This document shows, in pieces, positions 1 to 35,430 of a stretch of 35,430 nt of DNA. A program made the position numbers and the translations under genes. The number at the start of each line of letters is the position of its first letter. Positions within the stretch are counted from its first letter, which is position 1. Below the pieces are notes generated by a model, which made no database searches, was not told where the DNA came from, and saw nothing but the letters and a program-made list of their open reading frames with translations. The stretch is from positions 1 to 35,430 of IMG/VR virus record IMGVR_UViG_2923302340_000005; one strand, given 5' to 3'. This stretch comes from a virus. Taxonomy: Duplodnaviria > Heunggongvirae > Uroviricota > Caudoviricetes.

Positions 1-1023
1 TTATGTGGATGAAATGTGGATGCCTCCTTTTAACGGATTAAGTGAAATTGCATCCTGGAGGAAATCAGGAGCGAGGTGCGCATAGGTCATAGTTTGCTGG
101 ATCGTAGCGTGCCCCATAATTCGCTGGAGCGTAAGTATATTTCCTCCATTAATCATAAAGTGAGCAGCAAAGGTATGGCGTAGAACATGTACAGCCTGTC
201 CTTTTGGTAGGTCTGGCTTAACACTGCGAAGCACCTTGCGATATTCCTCATAATTGACGTCAAACAAAAGGCCGGATTTCTTTGTTTTGATCTCACTAAC
301 AACTTCATCAGAGACAGGAATAATTCGAACTTTTCCGTTTTTAGTTTTGTTAAACGTCACGCGATTATTGATGATGTGTTCCGCGCGCAGATTTTTCGCT
401 TCTCCCCATCTCGCCCCAGTACTGAGACAAAGTAGCGTAATCCGCCGGGCATCACCGCTTACTGCATCCAGTAATTTGGCGATTTCTTCCGTGGTGAGAT
501 ACGTCATTTCGGGTGATTTTCGTTTCAAAGAGGGGAGGGCGCGGAGCGGATTTTCTCCGTGAAATTCCCCGGCATTTGCCAGGAGTGTAAACATTCCTCC
601 GAGATCCGACTCATCACGCCGAACAGTAGACTCTTTTACTCCCAAGGATAAACGGGAGCTTCGATAAGCGGCCATGAAACGAGCATTAATCTGGCTAACC
701 CTTGGATCATTCATTTCTTTGATGATTTTTTTCAACCTGGTTAGAACGCCGTTAGCATATGGCTTATTGCGTCCACCCAATTCCCACCATAACGGAAGCA
801 GATCTGAGAGATGACGTTGCTCTGTTGGCTTTTCAAGCCATTCCTTATCGTGCATGTGGCTGAGAACATAACGCTCAAAGGCCACTGCATCTGCCTTTTT
901 CTTAAAAATCCGCTGAATCCGACGTCCACTTCGGCCACGCGGTCTAACATCCACTTTATACCGTCCACCATCGAGCGCTTTAATTGCCATTGGCAAGCCC
1001 TCCGGTGAAACGAGGAAAGACAT
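1..1023 (-). CDS. int: Tyrosine integrase, P2 Int-like
   Basis: 340-aa ORF; C-terminal catalytic region with conserved R...HxxR...Y pattern (VLRHTFAAH, TMTYAHL) typical of phage tyrosine recombinases; sits next to the immunity repressor as in P2. Stop codon at 1-3, so the adjacent att site is outside the window. Confidence 0.9.
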   Translation of the reverse strand: MSFLVSPEGLPMAIKALDGGRYKVDVRPRGRSGRRIQRIFKKKADAVAFERYVLSHMHDKEWLEKPTEQRHLSDLLPLWWELGGRNKPYANGVLTRLKKIIKEMNDPRVSQINARFMAAYRSSRLSLGVKESTVRRDESDLGGMFTLLANAGEFHGENPLRALPSLKRKSPEMTYLTTEEIAKLLDAVSGDARRITLLCLSTGARWGEAKNLRAEHIINNRVTFNKTKNGKVRIIPVSDEVVSEIKTKKSGLLFDVNYEEYRKVLRSVKPDLPKGQAVHVLRHTFAAHFMINGGNILTLQRIMGHATIQQTMTYAHLAPDFLQDAISLNPLKGGIHISST

Positions 1024-4083: not shown

Positions 4084-4190
4084 GAAACCAGAGCATGCAC
4101 ACACAAAAAAACCGCTTGCCATGCCGCAATCAGTCAGGTTACATTTCCGCTGCACCTCATAAAACGGGTGCCGGGTTTCGCAGCCTGCTG

Positions 4191-4395
4191 ACTACAAGAG
4201 CGCACAACCGCGCCAGCGGTTTTTTTGTGCGTACTGTATTGCCACGTTTTTTTCGCGTCAGAATTATGGCGGGGCGTACGGGGCCGACTTCGGTCGGGCC
4301 GGGATCTCTTGTAGCCGGTACTGCGAACCTCGTACGTCTCGCCACCCACAGTTTCGCAGCTCTGGATGGTGAGTTTTCACAACTTACTACAAGAG
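4191..4395. repeat. Three copies of CTACAAGAG, two direct and one inverted
   Basis: ACTACAAGAG at 4191-4200 and 4386-4395; reverse complement CTCTTGTAG at 4306-4314. The third copy contains the AAGAGG ribosome-binding site of the gene at 4406. Confidence 0.7.
4206..4226 (+). terminator. Rho-independent terminator candidate
   Basis: Stem AACCGC / GCGGTT with GCCA loop, followed by a T-run (4221-4226). Confidence 0.55.
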
Positions 4396-4405
4396 GCCAC
4401 ATATC

Positions 4406-4636
4406 ATGGCAAACCGCAAACAGCACCGCACTATCGCGGAGCGTCGTCACATCCAGACTGAAATCAACCGCAGACTTTCCCGCGCATTCCGCGTCGCTAA
4501 AATCATGCACATCAATATGCTGCATGAGCGTAGCTGCGAACTTTCAAACCTCTATTCATCCGCTGTTTTCAGCTATCTGGCGGATGATCTGCGCGAGCTT
4601 CAACAGCTCATCCAGCAGCAAAACAAACTCCATTAA
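4406..4636 (+). CDS. Hypothetical small basic protein
   Basis: 76-aa ORF, AAGAGG 9 nt upstream; preferred over the overlapping low-complexity 205-aa ORF 4095-4712. Confidence 0.5.
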   Translation: MANRKQHRTIAERRHIQTEINRRLSRAFRVAKIMHINMLHERSCELSNLYSSAVFSYLADDLRELQQLIQQQNKLH

Positions 4637-4708
4637 TTCCTGTTCCGGACCTTTCCTGCACCTTGCGGCGGGAGGCCTTCGCACATCTGTAACAAGAGGA
4701 TTGCCGCA

Positions 4709-5074
4709 ATGATTCTCGCCAACGACTTTCTTGAATACCTGCTCAACACAGAACGTGATCTTGCCGCTCGCGTGCGTGATCGTTATGACATGTACCTGAA
4801 ATCCCTGCCTGTACCGCAGCTCGCTGACGGAAAGATTGTTATTGATGGTCGCTACATGATTGACAGCCACGAGGGAAATTACAGGCTTTACCGCATTGAA
4901 GGTGGCACCCCGTCCGTTATTGGCATTTACCAGCGCCCATCCTCTGCAATTGTCGATGTGATTGCCGACAGCATCCGCATCACACATCGCCATGCCGACA
5001 CAGAAGACACCGTGCTGGAAATTCAGCGGCTGGCTGCCGTCTGCCGCGACACCCTGAATGGCATGACGAAGTAA
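4709..5074 (+). CDS. Hypothetical protein upstream of replication gene A
   Basis: 121-aa ORF with AAGAGG-type RBS. Confidence 0.55.
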   Translation: MILANDFLEYLLNTERDLAARVRDRYDMYLKSLPVPQLADGKIVIDGRYMIDSHEGNYRLYRIEGGTPSVIGIYQRPSSAIVDVIADSIRITHRHADTEDTVLEIQRLAAVCRDTLNGMTK

Positions 5075-5080
5075 ATCACT

Positions 5081-7909
5081 ATGACGGCAGAGTACATCAG
5101 GGACTGGCAACAACCGCGCCACGCAGTGGGACGTGAAGGAACGGGGATCCCCGTTCCTGAATCTGCGCTTTCCTCCTGGCTGGATGCCTACCGGGCAGAG
5201 AACGAGCGCCGCCAGGAAATGGCTGATGCGGCGTTCTCCGCCACGCCGCTGGGCAACCTGATTAATAAAAGCCTGGATGCACAGGAAAAACAGGACAAAA
5301 CCATCACACTGGCAGGAGACGCCAGAAAACAGGCACGCGGCGCGGTGGATGAAGCCATGGCCTCGCTGCGCCTGCTGCCGTCCTATCTGCGCGATCCGCT
5401 TATTCGCCACCTCTCCTTCCTGCGCAAAAAACAGGAAGTCGATCGCCGGAAAGGCAAAAAGAGCTGGCAGGCTGAACGCTACGCGCGCGGAACCCTGCGC
5501 AAAATATTCGAACGTCTGGACCGCACCGACCACCGCTGGCTGACACCGGGTTATCGCTCCCTTGCCGGACGCGAACGCCTGGATGATTTGCTTTACCTGC
5601 CGCAGCTCAACAAGCACCAGATACAGACGCTGGCCACCATGACGGCGGCGATGTTCAGCAGCACCTTCGAAAAACTCTGCGATGGCTTTGGCGCGACTGA
5701 TGGCGAACTGACCATGGATGTAACGCTGAAGGCGTATCAGATGCTGGCCCGCATGGCGTTACACCTGCACGCCATGCCTCCACATTATGACGCACTGACA
5801 ACAGACAAAGACCGGAGGAACGAACCGGACACGGAGCTGCTGCCGGGCGCAATCCTTCGCCTGACCTGTGCGGAATGGTGGAAACGCAAACTGTGGCTGT
5901 TACGTTGCGAGTGGAGAGAAGAACAACTCCGCGCCGCCTGTCTGGTTTCCAGAAAAACATCACCCTATCTGAGCCAGGACGCGTTAAGCGAGTTTCGCGC
6001 ACAGCGCGAGAAAACCCGCGACTTCCTGAAGAGCTTCGAACTGGAAAACGAAGACGGCTTCACGATTGATCTCGAGACAGTGTATTACGCGGGAGTAAGT
6101 AACCCGGTTCACCGTAAGGCAGAAATGATGGCCACCATGAAGGGACTGGAACTTCTGGCCGAAGCCCGTGGCGACAGAGCGGTGTTTCTGACTGTCACCT
6201 GCCCGTCAAAATACCACGCAACAACGGAGAACGGTCATCCGAACCCCAAATGGAACGGGGCCACCATGCGCGACTCCAGCGATTACCTGGTTAACACGTT
6301 TTTTGCGGCGGTCCGCAAGAAACTGAACCGCGACGGCCTGCGCTGGTATGGCATCCGCACGGTGGAGCCTCACCATGACGGCACCGTGCACTGGCATATG
6401 ATGGTCTTTGCTCATCCGGAAGAAATCGACAGCATCGTGGCCATCACCCGCGATATTGCCATTCAGGAAGACCGCCACGAGCTGGGCAATGATATTACTC
6501 CGCGCTTTAAGGTGGAGTATGTCGACGGCTCAAAAGGCACGCCAACCAGCTACATCGCCACCTACATCGGAAAGAACCTGGACAGCCGCGCCGTGGATGG
6601 CATCGACCCGAAAACGGGCAAACCACGCGTTGACCACGAAACCGGAAAATCAATGGCCGAGAGCGTGGAACGCGCCATCGGCTGGGCGCGCCTTCACCGG
6701 GTCCGCCAGTTCCAGTTCTTTGGTATCCCCTCCCGTCAGGTGTGGCGTGAACTGCGTCGCCTTGCCAGCCAGATGGCACGCAACCCCGAAGGCCCGCAAC
6801 GGCTGAAGGATGACGCAATGGATGCGGTTCTTGCTGCCGCTGATGCCGGATGTTTTGCCACCTACATAGAGAAACAGGGCGGCGTACTTGTTCCACGCAA
6901 AGACTACCTGATTCGCACCGCCTACGACCTCGCAGATGAGCTGAACGATTACGGCGAACAGAGCGTACAGATTTACGGGATCTGGTCGCCACTCATCGGG
7001 GAATCCTCCCGTGTGTGCACGCATCCGGATAACTGGAAGCTGGTAAGACGCAAACCGGAAGCGGAAGACAGCGCCCGCGAAAATGGTTTTGACCTTCAGG
7101 GCGGCCCTGCCGCCCCTTGGACTCGTGGCAATAACTGTCCCCGTGTACAGGAAACGGACAACAACGGGATAGAACAGCCGGAAGAACGGCCAGCACCGTG
7201 GCCGCAGCTCCCTGACGGCGTTGAAGTGAACGAATGGATGCGCTCACTGAAACGGCACGAACGCCGGGCGCTGATGCGTTCGCTTCGGCTTCGTGACAAA
7301 CAGGCAAAAAACAGCAGTGATGAAATGCAGAGCTGGACACAGAGCCGCAAACAGCAGCGGCCTTTGCCTGATAACCACGAATTACTCGCTAAAGAATGGC
7401 GGGAATCTGCCGAATCTCTCGGCCTGCATATCGGTGAACAGCAGATGCAGCACCTGTTACGGGGCGGCAGCCTGTACGTTGACGGCAGCATCATTGCACC
7501 GCAGGGATTTGAAATTGTACGCAAACCGGATACCCGCCCGGACAGCCGAATCACGCAGCTCTGGCAGCGCCTGAGCCGTAATCACGGCGTAAGCAGCACA
7601 GAGATCCGCCATAACCCGGTCGCCAGCTATCTGGAACAACTGGGGGCATCAGACCCCGAAGCCGCCGCACGTCTGGCATCCACACTTCAGCAGGACCAGA
7701 ACACCATGAAAACCCCCGTTACCGTGCTTTCTGACATGCTGCGCGCCATCCGTGACACAGAGCACGCACAGAGAATCAGTGAAACCACTGAACGCGCCCA
7801 CCGCAAAGCAGACCTGCTGCGGGGTAGCCTGACCAGTGGAAACAAAAAACAGACAGAAACGGGACTCACAAATCTCGTAAATGAGCAAAAAACGCGCCAT
7901 AAAACATGA
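5081..7909 (+). CDS. A: Rolling-circle replication initiator, P2 gpA-like (HUH endonuclease)
   Basis: 942 aa; HUH-type metal motif HWHMMVF and paired catalytic tyrosines SYIATYIGK, characteristic of P2 A / phiX174 gpA Rep proteins; carries a long charged C-terminal extension relative to P2 A. Confidence 0.85.
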   Translation: MTAEYIRDWQQPRHAVGREGTGIPVPESALSSWLDAYRAENERRQEMADAAFSATPLGNLINKSLDAQEKQDKTITLAGDARKQARGAVDEAMASLRLLPSYLRDPLIRHLSFLRKKQEVDRRKGKKSWQAERYARGTLRKIFERLDRTDHRWLTPGYRSLAGRERLDDLLYLPQLNKHQIQTLATMTAAMFSSTFEKLCDGFGATDGELTMDVTLKAYQMLARMALHLHAMPPHYDALTTDKDRRNEPDTELLPGAILRLTCAEWWKRKLWLLRCEWREEQLRAACLVSRKTSPYLSQDALSEFRAQREKTRDFLKSFELENEDGFTIDLETVYYAGVSNPVHRKAEMMATMKGLELLAEARGDRAVFLTVTCPSKYHATTENGHPNPKWNGATMRDSSDYLVNTFFAAVRKKLNRDGLRWYGIRTVEPHHDGTVHWHMMVFAHPEEIDSIVAITRDIAIQEDRHELGNDITPRFKVEYVDGSKGTPTSYIATYIGKNLDSRAVDGIDPKTGKPRVDHETGKSMAESVERAIGWARLHRVRQFQFFGIPSRQVWRELRRLASQMARNPEGPQRLKDDAMDAVLAAADAGCFATYIEKQGGVLVPRKDYLIRTAYDLADELNDYGEQSVQIYGIWSPLIGESSRVCTHPDNWKLVRRKPEAEDSARENGFDLQGGPAAPWTRGNNCPRVQETDNNGIEQPEERPAPWPQLPDGVEVNEWMRSLKRHERRALMRSLRLRDKQAKNSSDEMQSWTQSRKQQRPLPDNHELLAKEWRESAESLGLHIGEQQMQHLLRGGSLYVDGSIIAPQGFEIVRKPDTRPDSRITQLWQRLSRNHGVSSTEIRHNPVASYLEQLGASDPEAAARLASTLQQDQNTMKTPVTVLSDMLRAIRDTEHAQRISETTERAHRKADLLRGSLTSGNKKQTETGLTNLVNEQKTRHKT

Positions 7910-7958
7910 AGTGCGCACAAAACAGGCAAAAGCGGGATTTGAAAATCCCGTAAACGAT
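7857..7958. promoter_or_regulatory. Imperfect direct repeats straddling the A stop; candidate parC-like site or operator
   Basis: gggactcacaaatctcgtaaatga (7861-7884) and gggatttgaaaatcccgtaaacga (7934-7957) match at 18 of 24 positions; the second contains the perfect palindrome gggattt..aaatccc. Confidence 0.4.
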
Positions 7959-7985
7959 TAATTAATCAACATAAGGAAAAGCGAC

Positions 7986-8945
7986 ATGAAAATTTGTATC
8001 GACGACGGCTCCACCAACATCAAGCTGGCATGGACTGAGAACGGCGAACGCCGCAACGCCATCAGCCCGAACAGTTTCAAGTCGGAATGGTCTGCGCCGT
8101 TCGGTGGCACGCAGCCCGCGAACTACATGCTTGATGGCGTGCGCTATGGTTTTGATCCGGTCAGCGATCGCTTTGTCCAGACGACCGACACGCAATACCA
8201 GTACAGCGATGTGAATGTAATCGCCATTCACCACGCGCTGGTCAAATCAGGCATCACACCACAGGAAGTGGATGTGGTTGTCACCCTGCCACTGAGCGAA
8301 TATTTCGACACAAACGCACAGCCGGACATGGCCAACATCAACCGCAAAAAAGCGAACGTTATGCGCCCGGTGGAGTACCAGAACGGCAAAGCATTCACTA
8401 TCCGTAACGTACGGGTTATGCCTGAATCCATTCCGGCTGGCTTTAAAGCACTGGCTGACATGAGTCCGTTTGAATCCCTGCTGATTGTGGATTTAGGCGG
8501 AACCACGCTGGATGTGGCAAAGGTTCAGGGACAACTGGCAGGTATCAGCCAGGTGTTTTGCGATCCACACGTAGGCGTTTCCCTGATGGCCGATGCCGTA
8601 CTGTCGGTGATGGCTACTAACGGTATGCGTACCAGCCACCACATCGCCAATACCATTATCGAACATCGCCATGATGAAGCCTGGCTGCGCCAGCACATCC
8701 ACAATGACGCGCATTACGCCAGCCTGATGGCGGTTATTCGTGAAAAGGAAGAAACACTGAAACAACGCGTGATCCGCGCACTGGCGGGTTTTTCGGGTTA
8801 CGGGCGGGTGATGGTTGTCGGTGGCGGGGCGGAGATTGTGGCACCCGCTATCCGCGAAGCCTGCGGAGTTAATGCGACTTTCATCGCGGACGGGGTGCCA
8901 CAGTTTGCTCTGGTTAATGGGCTGTACGCAATGGACAAGGAGTAA
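7986..8945 (+). CDS. parM: ParM/StbA-like actin-type segregation ATPase
   Basis: 319 aa; strong resemblance to plasmid R1 ParM as recalled from memory along the whole length (IDDGSTNIKL, ISPNSFK, YSDVNVIAIHHAL, VMPESIPAG, LIVDLGGTTLD, SGY..VMVVGGGAE, LVNGLY). AAGGA RBS. Confidence 0.85.
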   Translation: MKICIDDGSTNIKLAWTENGERRNAISPNSFKSEWSAPFGGTQPANYMLDGVRYGFDPVSDRFVQTTDTQYQYSDVNVIAIHHALVKSGITPQEVDVVVTLPLSEYFDTNAQPDMANINRKKANVMRPVEYQNGKAFTIRNVRVMPESIPAGFKALADMSPFESLLIVDLGGTTLDVAKVQGQLAGISQVFCDPHVGVSLMADAVLSVMATNGMRTSHHIANTIIEHRHDEAWLRQHIHNDAHYASLMAVIREKEETLKQRVIRALAGFSGYGRVMVVGGGAEIVAPAIREACGVNATFIADGVPQFALVNGLYAMDKE

Positions 8946-8949
8946 ACCA

Positions 8950-9261
8950 ATGACGACACCAACCAGACGGATAAGTTTCTATCTGAAGCCCGCCGCCGTC
9001 AAGAACGAAAGCGAAGCATGCGCCTGGCTGGACAGCCTTACACCAGAAGCCCGCAAAAGCGGCCAACGCGTGGCTTTTCTGGCCGGGCTGGCACTTCTGA
9101 AAATGAATCCGGCAGAGGCTTACCGACTGGCTGCATGGGCTGATGGCGAGGCGTTATCAGTGACACAAACCAGGACAGAACGCCCCGTGCCACAGCCAGC
9201 ACCAACCGCACAGATAACCAGTCAGATGGCCGGAAATATCCGGGCGTTATTTCCCGAATAA
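8950..9261 (+). CDS. parR: ParR-like adaptor protein (putative)
   Basis: 103 aa directly downstream of the parM-like gene; AAGGAG 7 nt upstream; resembles R1 ParR (RRISFYLKP..., VAFLAGLAL, C-terminal LFPE). Track ORF starts further upstream inside parM. Confidence 0.65.
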   Translation: MTTPTRRISFYLKPAAVKNESEACAWLDSLTPEARKSGQRVAFLAGLALLKMNPAEAYRLAAWADGEALSVTQTRTERPVPQPAPTAQITSQMAGNIRALFPE

Positions 9262-9268
9262 CACAACG

Positions 9269-9288
9269 TCAGGGCGAGTTCGCCCTGA
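9269..9288. repeat. Perfect palindrome TCAGGGCGA-GT-TCGCCCTGA, left bracket of the Ea22-like pair
   Basis: Read directly; shares its stem sequence with the palindrome at 10474-10499 on the other side of the pair. Confidence 0.6.
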
Positions 9289-9324
9289 TCTCCACCTCAG
9301 AACATAAACAAGGAGACCGACTTA

Positions 9325-9924
9325 ATGAGCGAAATCAACTATCAGGCACTGCGTGAGTTAGCAAAACAGGCAACACAGGGCGAATGGGTCGCATTTATTT
9401 CGCCGGGCAAATACGGCACGTACGCCGTGCACACACCAGGAGATAATCATCACGGAGATATTGTCGACTGGCCTGGATTCGACGAACAGAAAAACGCAGA
9501 GAACAACGCTCGTTATATCGCAGCTTTCAACCCTGAAGTAGTGCAGGCTCTGTTGGATGAACGAGAAGCCCAAAGCAAACGCATTGCAGAGCTGGAGGCT
9601 AATTTCACGGAGCTGGCAGCGGAGAATGCCGCAATGAAGCTGTTTATCAGGGGCAGTTGCTATGTATTTGATGGAGAGCAGGATGAAATATCTGACGCGT
9701 ATATCTGCGCAACAGACGGAGGAATGCCACAAACCCCAGCCACCGACGCTTTTCTGGCTGAAGTACGGGCGCAGGGCGTGGAGATGCTGGCAAAAAATCA
9801 TCAGAGTATCGTCAATGCACTTAAGGGAGATTCTTTATTTTCTGATGATGAATACCGACATGCAGCTATTGTTTCCGCAGCTGTATATTTCGCCGCAGAG
9901 CTTCGCAAAGGAGGCAGCCAGTGA
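9325..9924 (+). CDS. Ea22/Ead-like family protein, paralog 1
   Basis: 199 aa; N-terminus MSEINYQALRELAKQA and ALLDEREAQSKRIAELE coiled-coil motif; AGGAG RBS. Confidence 0.55.
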   Translation: MSEINYQALRELAKQATQGEWVAFISPGKYGTYAVHTPGDNHHGDIVDWPGFDEQKNAENNARYIAAFNPEVVQALLDEREAQSKRIAELEANFTELAAENAAMKLFIRGSCYVFDGEQDEISDAYICATDGGMPQTPATDAFLAEVRAQGVEMLAKNHQSIVNALKGDSLFSDDEYRHAAIVSAAVYFAAELRKGGSQ

Positions 9925-10460
9925 GCAAAATTGACTATCAGGCACTACAAATGGCAGCAGAACGTGCAATTCCGGCAATGGAACGCCTGTTAATATTGCC
10001 AGTTGATGATGATTTGTTAAGCGAACAGGAACTTAAAGATTACGGTGTGGATATTGACGCGATCAACACCTTCAGAATTCTGGCTGGACCGGAAGACATG
10101 CTGGCACTGCTGGATGAACTGGAAACAGCAAAAAAACGCATCGCTGAACTGGAAAAAATCGCCACTGACTATGCACTTAAATTCCAGAAAGCACAGGACG
10201 CATTAAAGTATGCCGCTTTGCTGCATAGCAGGACGGCGCAACAAACAAATAATTTTGCAGTATCGCTTCCGGACATAAGCGAATATTTCATTAATGACGT
10301 ATTTCAGCCCTTGCGATACGAGCGGGATGTTGAAAGAGCCATCATAAAGGCTGGCGGAAAAGCATTGTGGCAGGAGAAGCACGAGGAAAGAACGCATCAG
10401 CTAAGTGATGTAAATAGTGGATGGTTATGCCCACTGACAGAAGGTAAAAAGAACACCTGA
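9921..10460 (+). CDS. Ea22/Ead-like family protein, paralog 2
   Basis: 179 aa; GTG start overlapping the upstream stop (GTGA), AAGGAGG RBS; N-terminus MSKIDYQALQ and ALLDELETAKKRIAELE; divergent C-terminus. Confidence 0.55.
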   Translation: MSKIDYQALQMAAERAIPAMERLLILPVDDDLLSEQELKDYGVDIDAINTFRILAGPEDMLALLDELETAKKRIAELEKIATDYALKFQKAQDALKYAALLHSRTAQQTNNFAVSLPDISEYFINDVFQPLRYERDVERAIIKAGGKALWQEKHEERTHQLSDVNSGWLCPLTEGKKNT

Positions 10461-11026
10461 TTTCCTCTCAAACCAGGGCGATAATCGCGCATCGCCCTGC
10501 TGCACAATAGTGCACAAATTTGCACAATTTTTTTGAACGACTTTTTGCCCTTCCAGCCCGCGTGGCGGCTGGATCCGTCAAGGATCCGTGCGTGCACAAA
10601 AAAACGCGTTTTTTCTGCGCGCAGGTGACGGGGGAACAGCCCGCGCTTCAGGGGGTAAATAGCATTCCCTGAACGATGTCGCAGAGACACAACAGAATGG
10701 CCATATTTCTCACGCTGAGCATGAAAAAGGCGTGAGGGCTTTTGATTTGATGGGGTGAAAGGTAAGGCCGTCAAAATCGCACTGAGGCAGCGAGGACATA
10801 CAGTCAACGTGGTGGGATTGCGTAAGAGTCTGACCGTCGATGGTGGCGATAAACTGGAAGGCGTCGTGAAATTATCTGATTGATACAGGAGCTGGAGAGC
10901 CGGGGCATAAATTTTTTATGCCCCGGCGAAGCAGCAGACAAGCGAAGCGCGTCAGTGATGCGGCACCTTGCCGACCACACTTCATAAGTGCAAAATACGA
11001 GCAAAGAAATCAATGGAGGCTGTTTT
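10461..11026. other. Structured noncoding region; candidate cos packaging site
   Basis: No credible ORF on either strand. Contains palindrome CAGGGCGAT / ATCGCCCTG (10474-10499), TGCACAA three times at exact 10-bp spacing (10501-10527) plus a fourth at 10593, palindromes AAAAAACGCGTTTTTT (10599-10614) and CTGCGCGCAG (10615-10624), a GACGGGGGAA segment (10627-10636) reminiscent of the P2/186 cohesive-end sequence, and a 12-bp perfect stem CCGGGGCATAAA / TTTATGCCCCGG (10900-10926). Confidence 0.4.
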
Positions 11027-11551
11027 ATGGTCATTAATTACAAGCAGTTACGAGAAAAACGAGATCAGGTAAAGGAGAGTTTTCGCCGCAATGAAGACCT
11101 GACCCCACTTGTACGAATTGCCCAGGGAATTGTTGATGCTTATGAAATCTCTCTGGAGCTGCCATCACAGACATGGACGGATAGCGACGGTAATCGCCAG
11201 CATTACGTTTCATGCGGACTGGAAACAACTGAAGGGTTTCGCAGAATGCCTTTATCTCAGATCCCTGCCGCTACCCCCAAAGCAAGGGGCGGCAATGATG
11301 AGCGAAAACTGATTTTCAGCATTGAGACAGTGGTTGACGACACACCTGGCGAAGTCGCCTTCGTGCATACTCCTGTTTCGATCGCAATGTATAACGATGA
11401 AATACAGGTTCGCGTTAATAATAATATCGTGCCACTTAAAGAAGGTAATTCACCATACACCACCGTTTGTGAAGCCATTCAATATTACGTTCTCTCTGAA
11501 ATTGATAATCTCAAGCCTGACGGCACCCAGAAAATGGTTCAACTCTGGTAA
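11027..11551 (+). CDS. Hypothetical accessory protein
   Basis: 174 aa from ATG 11027 with GGAGG 7 nt upstream; no recognisable family; convergent with portal Q. Track ORF starts at GTG 10988. Confidence 0.55.
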   Translation: MVINYKQLREKRDQVKESFRRNEDLTPLVRIAQGIVDAYEISLELPSQTWTDSDGNRQHYVSCGLETTEGFRRMPLSQIPAATPKARGGNDERKLIFSIETVVDDTPGEVAFVHTPVSIAMYNDEIQVRVNNNIVPLKEGNSPYTTVCEAIQYYVLSEIDNLKPDGTQKMVQLW

Positions 11552-11556
11552 AAAGG

Positions 11557-11583
11557 ACAGCCCCAATCACGGGGCTGTTTTTT
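11557..11583. terminator. Hairpin plus T-run between the convergent accessory gene and Q
   Basis: ACAGCCCC-AATCAC-GGGGCTGT followed by TTTTTT on the plus strand; the Q stop codon lies in the loop. Confidence 0.55.
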
Positions 11584-33639: not shown

Positions 33640-33900
33640 ATGTTCCGTTGTCCGCTTTGTGGCGCATCTGCCCGTATCCGCACCAGTCGTCCGGAAAATG
33701 ATTCAAACACCGTGCGGCAAAAGTATTACCAGTGTAACAACCTGGAATGCGGCGTATGCTTCTCAACACTGGAAGCCTTCCATAAATTCACATCAAAACA
33801 CGCCTCCGGCGTTCACTCTTCAGAAGGTATCCCGTGGCATGAGCTGCCAGCTTCACACAGGGGAAACAATCAGATGAGTTTGCCTTTACCTCAGAATTAA
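33640..33900 (+). CDS. ogr: Ogr/Delta-family zinc-finger late transcription activator
   Basis: 86 aa; MF.CPLC...AR.RTSR......Y.QC.N..C matches the Ogr CxxC...CxxC zinc finger; last gene of the phage backbone; AAGGGAGG RBS. Confidence 0.8.
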   Translation: MFRCPLCGASARIRTSRPENDSNTVRQKYYQCNNLECGVCFSTLEAFHKFTSKHASGVHSSEGIPWHELPASHRGNNQMSLPLPQN

Positions 33901-33988: not shown

Positions 33989-34225
33989 ATGTGGAAAGGC
34001 CCCGGAAAACATTTCTGTTTAACCGAGGCCCTAACACTTCTTACCTTCGCAAGTAGAAGGTTAGCGCCTCTCCTCTCAGGAGACAAGCGTTATGACGCAA
34101 ATTCCGTTAAAAACCCTGTTACTTTGCATAACTGCGGTAGCGATAATCTGGATCCTCCACACATCACCGTGCGAGTTACGATTCAGGTTTGCTGGCACGG
34201 AAATTGCGGCATTCTTACTATGTAA
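33989..34225 (+). CDS. Mok-like overlapping reading frame (putative)
   Basis: 78-aa ORF in a different frame that spans the hok-like gene, as mok does in hok/sok loci; no independent support. Confidence 0.3.
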   Translation: MWKGPGKHFCLTEALTLLTFASRRLAPLLSGDKRYDANSVKNPVTLHNCGSDNLDPPHITVRVTIQVCWHGNCGILTM

Positions 34226-34232
34226 TAAGTAA
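34092..34232 (+). CDS. hok: Hok/Gef-family type I toxin (46 aa)
   Basis: Not in the ORF track. AGGAG 9 nt upstream of ATG 34092; translation MTQIPLKTLLLCITAVAIIWILHTSPCELRFRFAGTEIAAFLLCNK has the Hok signature: hydrophobic helix with CxT, then CE(L/V)R.R....E(I/V)AAF..C. Confidence 0.75.
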   Translation: MTQIPLKTLLLCITAVAIIWILHTSPCELRFRFAGTEIAAFLLCNK

Positions 34233-34481: not shown

Positions 34482-34679
34482 ATGACGCAAAATGTACGAT
34501 GCAAAAATTGCAACAAACTACTTGCCCGCGCCTCATTTCACTACATTGAAATAAAATGTCCGCGCTGCAAAACACTTAACCAGATAACGAGAGCCATCGA
34601 GCACCCCACACACATGAGGAGTTATGACCGTGGGGATCGCAATCCAGCACCAACCAGCACATACACCGGAACACACTAA
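34482..34679 (+). CDS. com: Com-like zinc-finger protein (Mu Com family)
   Basis: 65 aa from ATG 34482 (track starts at GTG 34473); RCKNCNKLL...HYIEIKCPRCK is nearly identical to the Mu Com zinc finger as I recall it; 3' end overlaps the methyltransferase start by 56 nt. Confidence 0.75.
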   Translation: MTQNVRCKNCNKLLARASFHYIEIKCPRCKTLNQITRAIEHPTHMRSYDRGDRNPAPTSTYTGTH

Positions 34680-35430
34680 GGTTTATCAGACTGACAATGC
34701 CACGCTCTGTCGTGGGAATGCGCTGGAAATATTGCCGCTGATTGAGCCAGAAAGCATTGATGCCTTAATCACTGACCCGCCTTACAGTTCGGGCGCGACA
34801 CACAAGGCCGGACGCACCAACCAGGGCAGCCATGCAAAATATCTGAACGGCGAGAACCTTCACCGCTTTGATGGGTTCGCGGGTGAAAACATGGACGCCC
34901 GTTCGTGGGCTTACTGGACACAATTATGGATGGCACAGGCACACCGCGCAGTCAGGCCGGGCGGTTATGCCCTGGTATTTACTGACTGGCGACAACTACC
35001 AGCTTTAACCGATGCGTTTCAGGCCAGTGGCTTTACATGGCGCGGCATCATTGCGTGGAACAAGGGGAGGGGGTCACGAACACCACATACCGGGTATTTC
35101 CGGCATCAGTGCGAATACATCGTCTGGGGCAGCAAAGGCCATTTAGATAAATCGCCTTCGGGACCGTTCGACGGCTGCATGACGTTCCCAGTTATCCCGT
35201 CAAAGAAAATGCACCCGACCGGAAAACCAGAAGAACTAATGGCGGAACTGGTCAGGACTGTGAATAGTGGCGGAACAGTCCTTGATCCTTTTATGGGGTC
35301 AGGGACAACGGGTGTGGCTGCACTGAAAGCAGGGCGAAAATTTATTGGTATAGAAACCAGTGATCATTATTTTGAGGTAGCAGCGCAGCGGCTTCGGGGG
35401 ACTATTACCACAACCATTTCGGCTACATAA
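34624..35430 (+). CDS. DNA methyltransferase, beta-class amino-methyltransferase (N6-adenine or N4-cytosine)
   Basis: 268 aa, complete (TAA at 35428-35430); motif IV DPPY (ITDPPYSS) precedes motif I (FMGSGTTG), the beta-class order; GAGGA RBS. Confidence 0.8.
   Translation: MTVGIAIQHQPAHTPEHTKVYQTDNATLCRGNALEILPLIEPESIDALITDPPYSSGATHKAGRTNQGSHAKYLNGENLHRFDGFAGENMDARSWAYWTQLWMAQAHRAVRPGGYALVFTDWRQLPALTDAFQASGFTWRGIIAWNKGRGSRTPHTGYFRHQCEYIVWGSKGHLDKSPSGPFDGCMTFPVIPSKKMHPTGKPEELMAELVRTVNSGGTVLDPFMGSGTTGVAALKAGRKFIGIETSDHYFEVAAQRLRGTITTTISAT

Follow-up and report, generated by a model that had tools for sequence, protein, structure and literature searches.

A stretch of tailed-phage DNA of 35,430 nucleotides (IMG/VR virus record IMGVR_UViG_2923302340_000005, positions 1 to 35,430; referred to here as the window, whose numbering is used throughout) carries, directly after its replication gene A, a two-gene cassette that by homology appears to be a type II (ParMRC, actin-type) partition module and a core part of the P88-like phages. 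The first gene, parM (7986–8945, plus strand), is predicted to encode an actin-like filament-forming ATPase of 319 residues, recognized by its ParM Pfam domains and by its match to the structures of ParM from plasmid R1. The second gene, parR (8950–9261, plus strand), is predicted to encode an adaptor protein of 103 residues. An A-rich array with phased A-tracts (7836–7965, plus strand), which spans the end of gene A and the spacer between gene A and parM, is a candidate for the parC-like centromere of the module.

The window is a P88-like prophage (genus Xuanwuvirus, family Peduoviridae). It is collinear with phage P88, to which positions 1821–34352 align at 84–97% nucleotide identity, and is bounded by an integrase gene at its start (1–1023, minus strand) and a DNA methylase gene at its end; a helix-turn-helix repressor and a Cox-like protein are also encoded. 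Gene A (5081–7909, plus strand) specifies a 942-residue replication endonuclease of the P2 gpA family (PF05840, expectation value (E) 1.8e-130). It is of the P88 type, its product being 97–98% identical to P88 gpA and only ~31% identical to P2 gpA. The interval between gpA and the portal gene is the site of old and tin in P2 (PMC9122126). The lineage is inducible and lytic, as shown for P88 and phiSM (PMC5285337, PMC6456863).

Results

The ParM and ParR proteins

The parM gene starts 76 nt past the gene A stop. Both Pfam domains of ParM are covered end to end by its product (StbA_N, E 3.8e-82; ParM C-terminal domain, E 1.3e-68), and crystal structures of R1 ParM match residues 2–316 (E 2.3e-92). 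The prophage ParM and R1 ParM agree fully in the nucleotide-binding motifs IDDGSTNIKL, DLGGTTLD and GGGAE, so that the phosphate-1, phosphate-2 and adenosine motifs by which an actin-fold ParM ATPase is recognized are all present. Identity to the plasmid ParMs ranges from 46 to 52%, with none above 52%. By these matches the protein is an orthodox, full-length R1-type ParM.

The parR gene begins 4 nt beyond the parM stop and is preceded by the ribosome-binding site AAGGAG. Its product belongs to the Plasmid_stab_B family (PF10784, E 2.9e-24). For comparison, plasmid ParR/StbB proteins of R100-type IncF, IncFIA/FIC, IncI and IncL/M plasmids were aligned. A profile built from the prophage ParR and four plasmid ParRs retrieved the structure of pB171 ParR (2JD3) with an E of 1.2e-12, and 2JD3 was still ranked first when the profile was built from phage ParRs only (E 0.0018). 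The match spans the N-terminal DNA-binding region, and a ribbon-helix-helix fold is inferred for ParR from this homology. Relationship to the plasmid proteins is distant at the level of overall sequence. The prophage ParR is 16–25% identical to the plasmid ParRs compared, tblastn returned no plasmid ParR at E < 1e-3 beyond the phage copies, and a word-based protein search with ParR found copies in Enterobacteriaceae prophages only, with no distant phage relatives.

Three parts can be distinguished along the ParR chain: a region of ribbon-helix-helix type (approximately residues 6–62), a hypervariable linker (approximately residues 64–92) and a conserved C-terminal tail, NIRALFPE. Among ~84 related loci at least two ParR allele classes occur, of 103 and 104 residues, whose mutual identity is only 51–57%. 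The N-terminal strand RRISFYLKP and the helices that follow it are common to all of these alleles, and the tail NIxxLFPE is invariant although the ~30 intervening residues are almost unrelated. The ratio of nonsynonymous to synonymous substitution rates (dN/dS) is 0.20 for residues 1–63 and 0.84, near-neutral, for the linker. In the alignment the tail, (K)NIxxLFPE, falls opposite the C-terminal ends of the four plasmid ParRs, for example KKNAMKLIN of R100 StbB, and a motif KN-I/A-x-x-L/F-F/I is common to the phage and plasmid proteins. In R1 ParR the C-terminal tail is the part that binds ParM. The pattern of conservation, in which a flexible linker joins a DNA-binding domain to a tail that would bind the motor, fits what would be expected of a working adaptor.

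An earlier note on this DNA, made from its letters alone, had recognized an actin-like ParM after gene A and a small ParR-like protein at 8950–9261, and had placed the pair in an integrating P2-like prophage, in the interval that holds old and tin in P2. The hidden Markov model search gives a very strong StbA/ParM match, the smaller protein matches PF10784 and is homologous to the ribbon-helix-helix ParR of pB171, and the location directly after gene A is as described; these parts of the note are borne out.

The candidate centromere upstream of parM

Two direct repeats of 42 nt, 76% identical and 73 nt apart, lie in the array on the plus strand. Repeat unit 1 (7843–7884) is situated inside the 3′ end of gene A, whose last ~65 nt overlap it, and contains the palindrome CGGGACT-CACA-AATCTCG (7860–7877). 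Repeat unit 2 (7916–7957) contains a perfect palindrome, CGGGATT-TGAA-AATCCCG (7933–7950), the centre of which is 44 nt upstream of the parM start. In the earlier note repeats had been marked at 7857–7958; they are real, and their limits are better drawn as these two units.

The 18-bp palindrome CGGGATT-N4-AATCCCG occurs in the 35-kb window only in these two copies. In most relatives the palindrome of unit 1 also has the perfect arms CGGGATT/AATCCCG. Relatives invariably keep a distance of 73 bp between the two palindromes, which stand at positions −126 and −53 relative to the parM start. A comparison of 56 distinct upstream variants shows conserved arms around a 4-nt spacer that varies. The array contains 46% A on the plus strand over ~125 bp. 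When A-tract phasing at 10.6 bp was scored along the whole 35-kb sequence, the array took ranks 1–3 of 7061 windows, and its periodicity power was reached by 6 of 2000 shuffles. Two repeat blocks 72–73 bp apart are also found upstream of parM in R100 and in IncL/M. By its position and by analogy to parC of R1 and R100, the array at 7836–7965 fits a parC-like centromere.

Covariation between ParR allele class and palindrome sequence was sought and none was found, both classes having the same sites; this is consistent with the identical N-terminal strand in the two classes. None of the four plasmid parC regions that were examined contains the phage palindrome. An alternative reading of the palindromes as RNA hairpins, which was not adopted, is partly tenable: site 2 has a predicted folding energy of −9 to −12 kcal/mol, and site 1 as it stands here has no fold. 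At two single loci both palindrome copies are changed at the same position (CAGGATT... twice in one case; AAAACCCG with AAACCCCG in the other), which hints at concerted evolution of the two sites, in numbers too small to interpret.

The C-terminal ~140 residues of the gene A product (~800–942; window 7480–7909) have no counterpart in gpA of Klebsiella phage or P2 type, matches to which stop near residue 800. This lineage-specific extension is the portion of gene A that overlaps repeat unit 1.

Expression of the cassette

No sigma-70-like promoter was found in 7500–9500 by a consensus scan, and no plus-strand terminator is predicted between gene A and parM. In the best promoter candidate chosen by eye, the −35 element lacks conservation among relatives. 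Because the 76-nt gap holds neither a predicted promoter nor a plus-strand terminator, parMR is probably co-transcribed with gene A, as the last part of the early replication operon, at times when no prophage repressor is present. Production together with the replication protein would mean that ParM and ParR are made while the phage genome is extrachromosomal.

Distribution and selection

The parMR cassette is present in 1306 of 5426 complete E. coli genomes (~24%), in which 1452 copies are chromosomal and 2 are on plasmids (1454 copies). P88-type gene A, counted at a coverage of at least 80%, occurs in 1320 complete E. coli genomes. The cassette is practically fixed in the P88 lineage and travels with P88-type gene A. 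Among phage records with a gene A homologue ParM is found in 14 of 382, all of them P88-like; it is missing both from the Klebsiella phages that have the next closest gene A (43%) and from P2 (31%). In a collection of 50,697 records one further phage alone, the phage-plasmid D6, has an R1-type ParM (47.8% identity), and a scan of genome contigs with ParM returned three near-identical loci only and no distant phage relatives. Identity to plasmid ParMs does not exceed 52%, and tblastn retrieves no plasmid ParR; the phage therefore acquired parMR long ago. A contig labelled as from the Gram-positive Vagococcus sp. WN89Y (NZ_JBQPOM010000071.1) carries a ParM 98% identical to that of the prophage, most likely through contamination or a mislabelled assembly.

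Both genes are largely intact among related loci, parM in 86 of 87 (99%) and parR in 81 of 84 (96%). The dN/dS of parM is 0.05 over 68 distinct alleles, and third codon positions account for 144 of the 200 polymorphic sites. The ParM protein is 98.7–99.7% identical across phages whose DNA is 94–97% identical. These values clearly point to maintenance of parM and parR by purifying selection. Disrupted copies of parM are rare. In one locus (L088, match 6001–7380) the match to the gene is stretched to 1380 nt with an open reading frame (ORF) of only 411 nt, which suggests an insertion, and in phage 503458 (CP025874.1 / NC_049341.1) parM is in three pieces.

The interval from parR to the portal gene (9262–11566 in the window) is a variable hotspot, measuring 0.9–4.2 kb and differing also in content among 58 related loci. 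By Pfam and PHROG assignment it holds here two Ead/Ea22-like ORFs and a phrog_5091 ORF. The site of variable cargo starts after parR, and parMR is not part of it. The cassette gives no match in PADLOC and lacks the features of the variable anti-phage cargo of the old/tin type. The term cargo, applied to the pair in the earlier note, is therefore inapt for genes essentially fixed with P88-type gene A (1306 against 1320 genomes).

Within the hotspot, the two Ead/Ea22-like ORFs stand in tandem directly after parR (9325–9924 and 9921–10460, plus strand; PF13935, E 2e-25 and 8e-22), and neither matches a defence model. A segment of ~460 bp (10501–10963) that has no convincing ORF is 93–97% conserved in almost all loci, inside the otherwise variable interval. 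A cis-acting function, for instance as cos, is conceivable for this segment; a search with a P2 cos sequence gave no match.

The presence of parMR in P2-like phages is already known. The P88 counterpart, with 96.9% identity to the cassette, carries the annotation ParM and partition protein; the RefSeq labels in E. coli are ‘plasmid segregation protein ParM’ and ‘plasmid partitioning/stability family protein’; and the pair corresponds to PHROG families 691 and 2515, each of which bears the name ‘partition protein’. At gpA–gpQ, a putative system for plasmid partitioning has been reported in about a fourth of P2-like phages, and StbA with Plasmid_stab_B is listed ~489 times in the supplementary hotspot table of that study (Rousset et al., 2022; PMC9122126). 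The gene is also listed as a ‘fitness’ factor in a paper on phiSM of Citrobacter rodentium. The statement in the earlier note that no P2 cargo of this kind was known to have been described accordingly overstated the novelty. The present analysis contributes the linkage to P88-type gene A, evidence of selection, a division of ParR into three parts, the candidate centromere, the co-resident Hok/Gef gene and the argument for integration as the normal state.

Other modules on the prophage

An ORF at 34092–34232 (plus strand) matches the Hok/Gef toxin family above the curated cut-off (PF01848, E 2.5e-8) and is annotated likewise in P88 and in the circular record NZ_CP148288.1. By this match it appears to be a second plasmid-type, R1-like stability module on the prophage. 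No Sok RNA was detected in an Rfam scan at the gathering threshold. Another ORF (33989–34225) overlaps the Hok/Gef ORF upstream, in a mok-like position, and an Ogr/Delta zinc-finger gene (33640–33900) adjoins the Hok/Gef ORF.

The same Rfam scan gave two matches above the gathering score, isrK at 4152–4226 (plus strand, 66.7 bits) and C4 antisense RNA at 4262–4349 (plus strand, 81.1 bits). Both are inside or overlap an Ash-family ORF (4095–4712) just upstream of gene A. The region resembles, as far as these matches indicate, the antisense-controlled antirepressor region of the immI type of P1 and P7, here in a P2-like phage. At the prophage end opposite the integrase lies an N6/N4 DNA methyltransferase gene (34624–35430, plus strand; PF01555, E 2.7e-33), for which the best PADLOC model is a type II methyltransferase; in one circular record (L002) a Com-family regulator precedes the methyltransferase.

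Discussion

Proposed function of the module

In the role that we infer, the module would partition or position the phage genome while it is transiently a circle, once infection or excision has taken place; this reading is held with about as much belief as doubt. It is favoured by the analogy to srpMRC and AlpAC and by the position of the cassette after gene A. The srpMRC genes are co-expressed with excision and replication functions, only around excision; they lower the loss of the excised R391 circle and stabilize a test plasmid (PMC4489591). AlpAC consists of an early-induced actin-like protein and its adaptor, and is needed for efficient replication of the CGP3 prophage (PMC4446434).

In the proposed mechanism, ParR dimers would bind the phased repeat array across the end of gene A (7836–7965), and their conserved C-terminal tails would capture the ends of ParM-ATP filaments, the growth of which would drive two circular phage genomes apart. 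This would take place between infection and integration, or following derepression and excision. The benefit would be that a few circular copies are not lost or trapped in one daughter cell, or that they are placed where replication is efficient. The phage's own Hok/Gef module could serve as a back-up to parMR.

A number of points weigh against this proposal. The clear repeat units are only two and are palindromic, unlike the ten 11-bp direct iterons of R1 parC. A regulatory hallmark of R1 parC, its embedded autoregulated promoter, is also missing, none having been found inside the phage array. Palindrome 2 resembles an intrinsic terminator of the minus strand, and the array could instead be part of the gene A replication origin. 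A possible weak internal promoter, read by eye as TTGAAA-16 nt-ATTAAT, could allow expression in the lysogen. Replication by the P2-type rolling circle yields many copies in the lytic cycle, when there would be less need for partition. The AlphaFold2 model of the ParR monomer, computed from an alignment of 21 sequences, is of low confidence, with a predicted local distance difference test score of 54.7; this is expected for an obligate dimer modelled as a monomer. Helices in this low-confidence model cover residues 20–29, 32–52, 54–61 and 87–100. A literature search retrieved no expression, binding, mutant or phenotype study of the cassette.

Alternative explanations

ParM filaments might form a lytic cytoskeleton that positions or transports replicating phage DNA and has no part in partition to daughter cells. 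The timing would overlap with that of action on the transient circle, and the purpose would differ. The parMR genes close the replication operon, immediately behind gene A, and have been kept by a lineage whose induction and lytic growth are demonstrated (P88, phiSM). Likewise, AlpC of CGP3 and its adaptor AlpA are induced early and are required for efficient phage DNA replication (PMC4446434; PMC5539076). The phage ParM, however, is of the orthodox R1 type (~50% identity), for which the known activity is bipolar pushing of paired centromeres, and of 382 phage records that contain a homologue of gene A only the 14 P88-like ones have it, so that such replication does not generally need it. A lytic cytoskeleton is considered unlikely, though it retains some weight.

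Slightly less probable again is that P88-like phages are facultative plasmid prophages, in which ParMRC, Hok/Gef and the gene A replicon sustain a low-copy episome for many generations, for instance where the attachment site is taken or lacking. A partition system, a Hok/Gef toxin and an initiator of its own do make up a plasmid-like toolkit; the true phage-plasmid D6 has an R1-type ParM as well; and the episome idea has been offered for the pair in print, as a speculation (Rousset et al., 2022; PMC9122126). A circular ‘plasmid’ record of 34.5 kb (NZ_CP148288.1) moreover comprises an entire P88-like genome with int adjoining the methylase gene, which is the excised configuration. It is, however, the sole phage-sized circular record in PLSDB and could be induced phage DNA. 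Matches in PLSDB amount to 7 of 72,556 records; five are large replicons of 228 kb to 1.4 Mb that hold the copy inside, and a phage-sized record from Shigella boydii is a linear, IS1-disrupted prophage fragment. Nearly all E. coli copies (1452 of 1454) are chromosomal, the integrase is kept in all members, and gene A, probably with parMR, is in an operon that the prophage repressor would shut off. P88-like prophages are not phage-plasmids in the sense of normally autonomous replicons that are independent of integration, and a stable plasmid life looks rare among them.

The cassette might also act on foreign plasmids. Cross-talk between the prophage ParMRC and the ParMRC systems of IncF, IncI and IncL/M plasmids, in which ParR or the chromosomal centromere would cap or misdirect filaments, or the reverse, is improbable; if true, a prophage present in ~24% of complete E. 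coli genomes would be a widespread hidden determinant of resistance-plasmid inheritance. Still harder to credit is interference as such with incoming plasmids, a role considered in the earlier note; the prophage ParR or ParM would disturb incoming ParMRC systems of these groups, or the prophage centromere would be an incompatibility determinant. The tail motif common to phage and plasmid ParRs makes cross-capping of foreign ParM filaments conceivable, and the gpA–gpQ interval is a known hotspot of exclusion genes (PMC9122126). Against this stand the low identity between phage and plasmid ParRs (16–25%, with none found by tblastn), the limit of 52% identity to any plasmid ParM and the lack of the phage palindrome in the four plasmid parC regions. 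In addition, the pair has no PADLOC match and is fixed, unlike defence cargo, and is probably silent in the lysogen. That parMR is a decaying relic of plasmid–phage recombination with no current function, for which the interrupted parM genes of L088 and phage 503458 and a few truncated ParR proteins might be cited, is hardly credible given a parM dN/dS of 0.05, intact genes in 99% and 96% of loci, conserved functional motifs, a ParM protein more conserved than the DNA of the phages compared and persistence in 1306 genomes.

If action on the transient circular genome is correct, a partition machine that is a hallmark of plasmids would belong permanently to a prophage lineage that is among the commonest in E. 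coli. The principle represented by SXT/R391 and CGP3, that integrating elements guard their transient extrachromosomal form, would then extend to tailed phages. P88 and phiSM are inducible and genetically tractable, and R1 ParMRC is the best-understood machine of its kind, which makes the question easy to test.

Comparison with known systems

The cassette shares with ParMRC (parA/stbAB) of R1 and R100 the order centromere–parM–parR, the centromere of the prophage being the candidate array. ParR is of the same Pfam family, with the N-terminal strand RRISFYLKP in the prophage protein and RRTIAFKLNP in the plasmid protein and with related tails, and both systems have an A-rich upstream array with two blocks 72–73 bp apart. 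R1 also has the same pairing of partition with post-segregational killing (Hok/Gef) as the prophage. The R1/R100 system resides on a plasmid, whereas the prophage cassette is on an integrating phage. The prophage ParR is shorter, with 103 residues against 117–147 in R1/R100-type proteins, and half of the prophage array is inside the gene A coding sequence; no promoter was detected in the array, unlike in R1/R100. The top structural relative of the phage ParR, pB171 ParR (2JD3, deposited as ‘StbB protein’), is a distant one.

Among phage systems, D6 is a P1-like phage with a StbA-type ParM that is maintained as a plasmid, whereas the P88-like phages have an integrase and are more than 99% chromosomal. 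The old/tin hotspot of P2 occupies the same gpA–gpQ interval, but parMR is fixed and has no defence-model match, unlike the variable anti-phage systems found there.

Two systems on integrating elements are closer in the circumstances proposed for parMR. srpMRC of SXT/R391 is also a type II system on a normally integrated element, and is accompanied by toxin–antitoxin modules, which recalls the Hok/Gef gene of the prophage (Carraro et al., 2015; PMC4489591). The element is conjugative and not a phage, and SrpM and SrpR are distant from R1 ParM and ParR whereas the prophage proteins are orthodox R1-type. The function of srpMRC has been established experimentally, whereas the one proposed for prophage parMR is drawn from comparison. 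AlpAC/alpS of the Corynebacterium glutamicum prophage CGP3 belongs to another family of actin-like proteins, in a Gram-positive host and an unrelated phage, and its role is in efficient replication and transport. It is nevertheless also an actin-like protein specified by a prophage, together with a DNA-binding adaptor, and the adaptor binds repeats upstream of the operon and acts on circular phage DNA (Donovan et al., 2015; PMC4446434).

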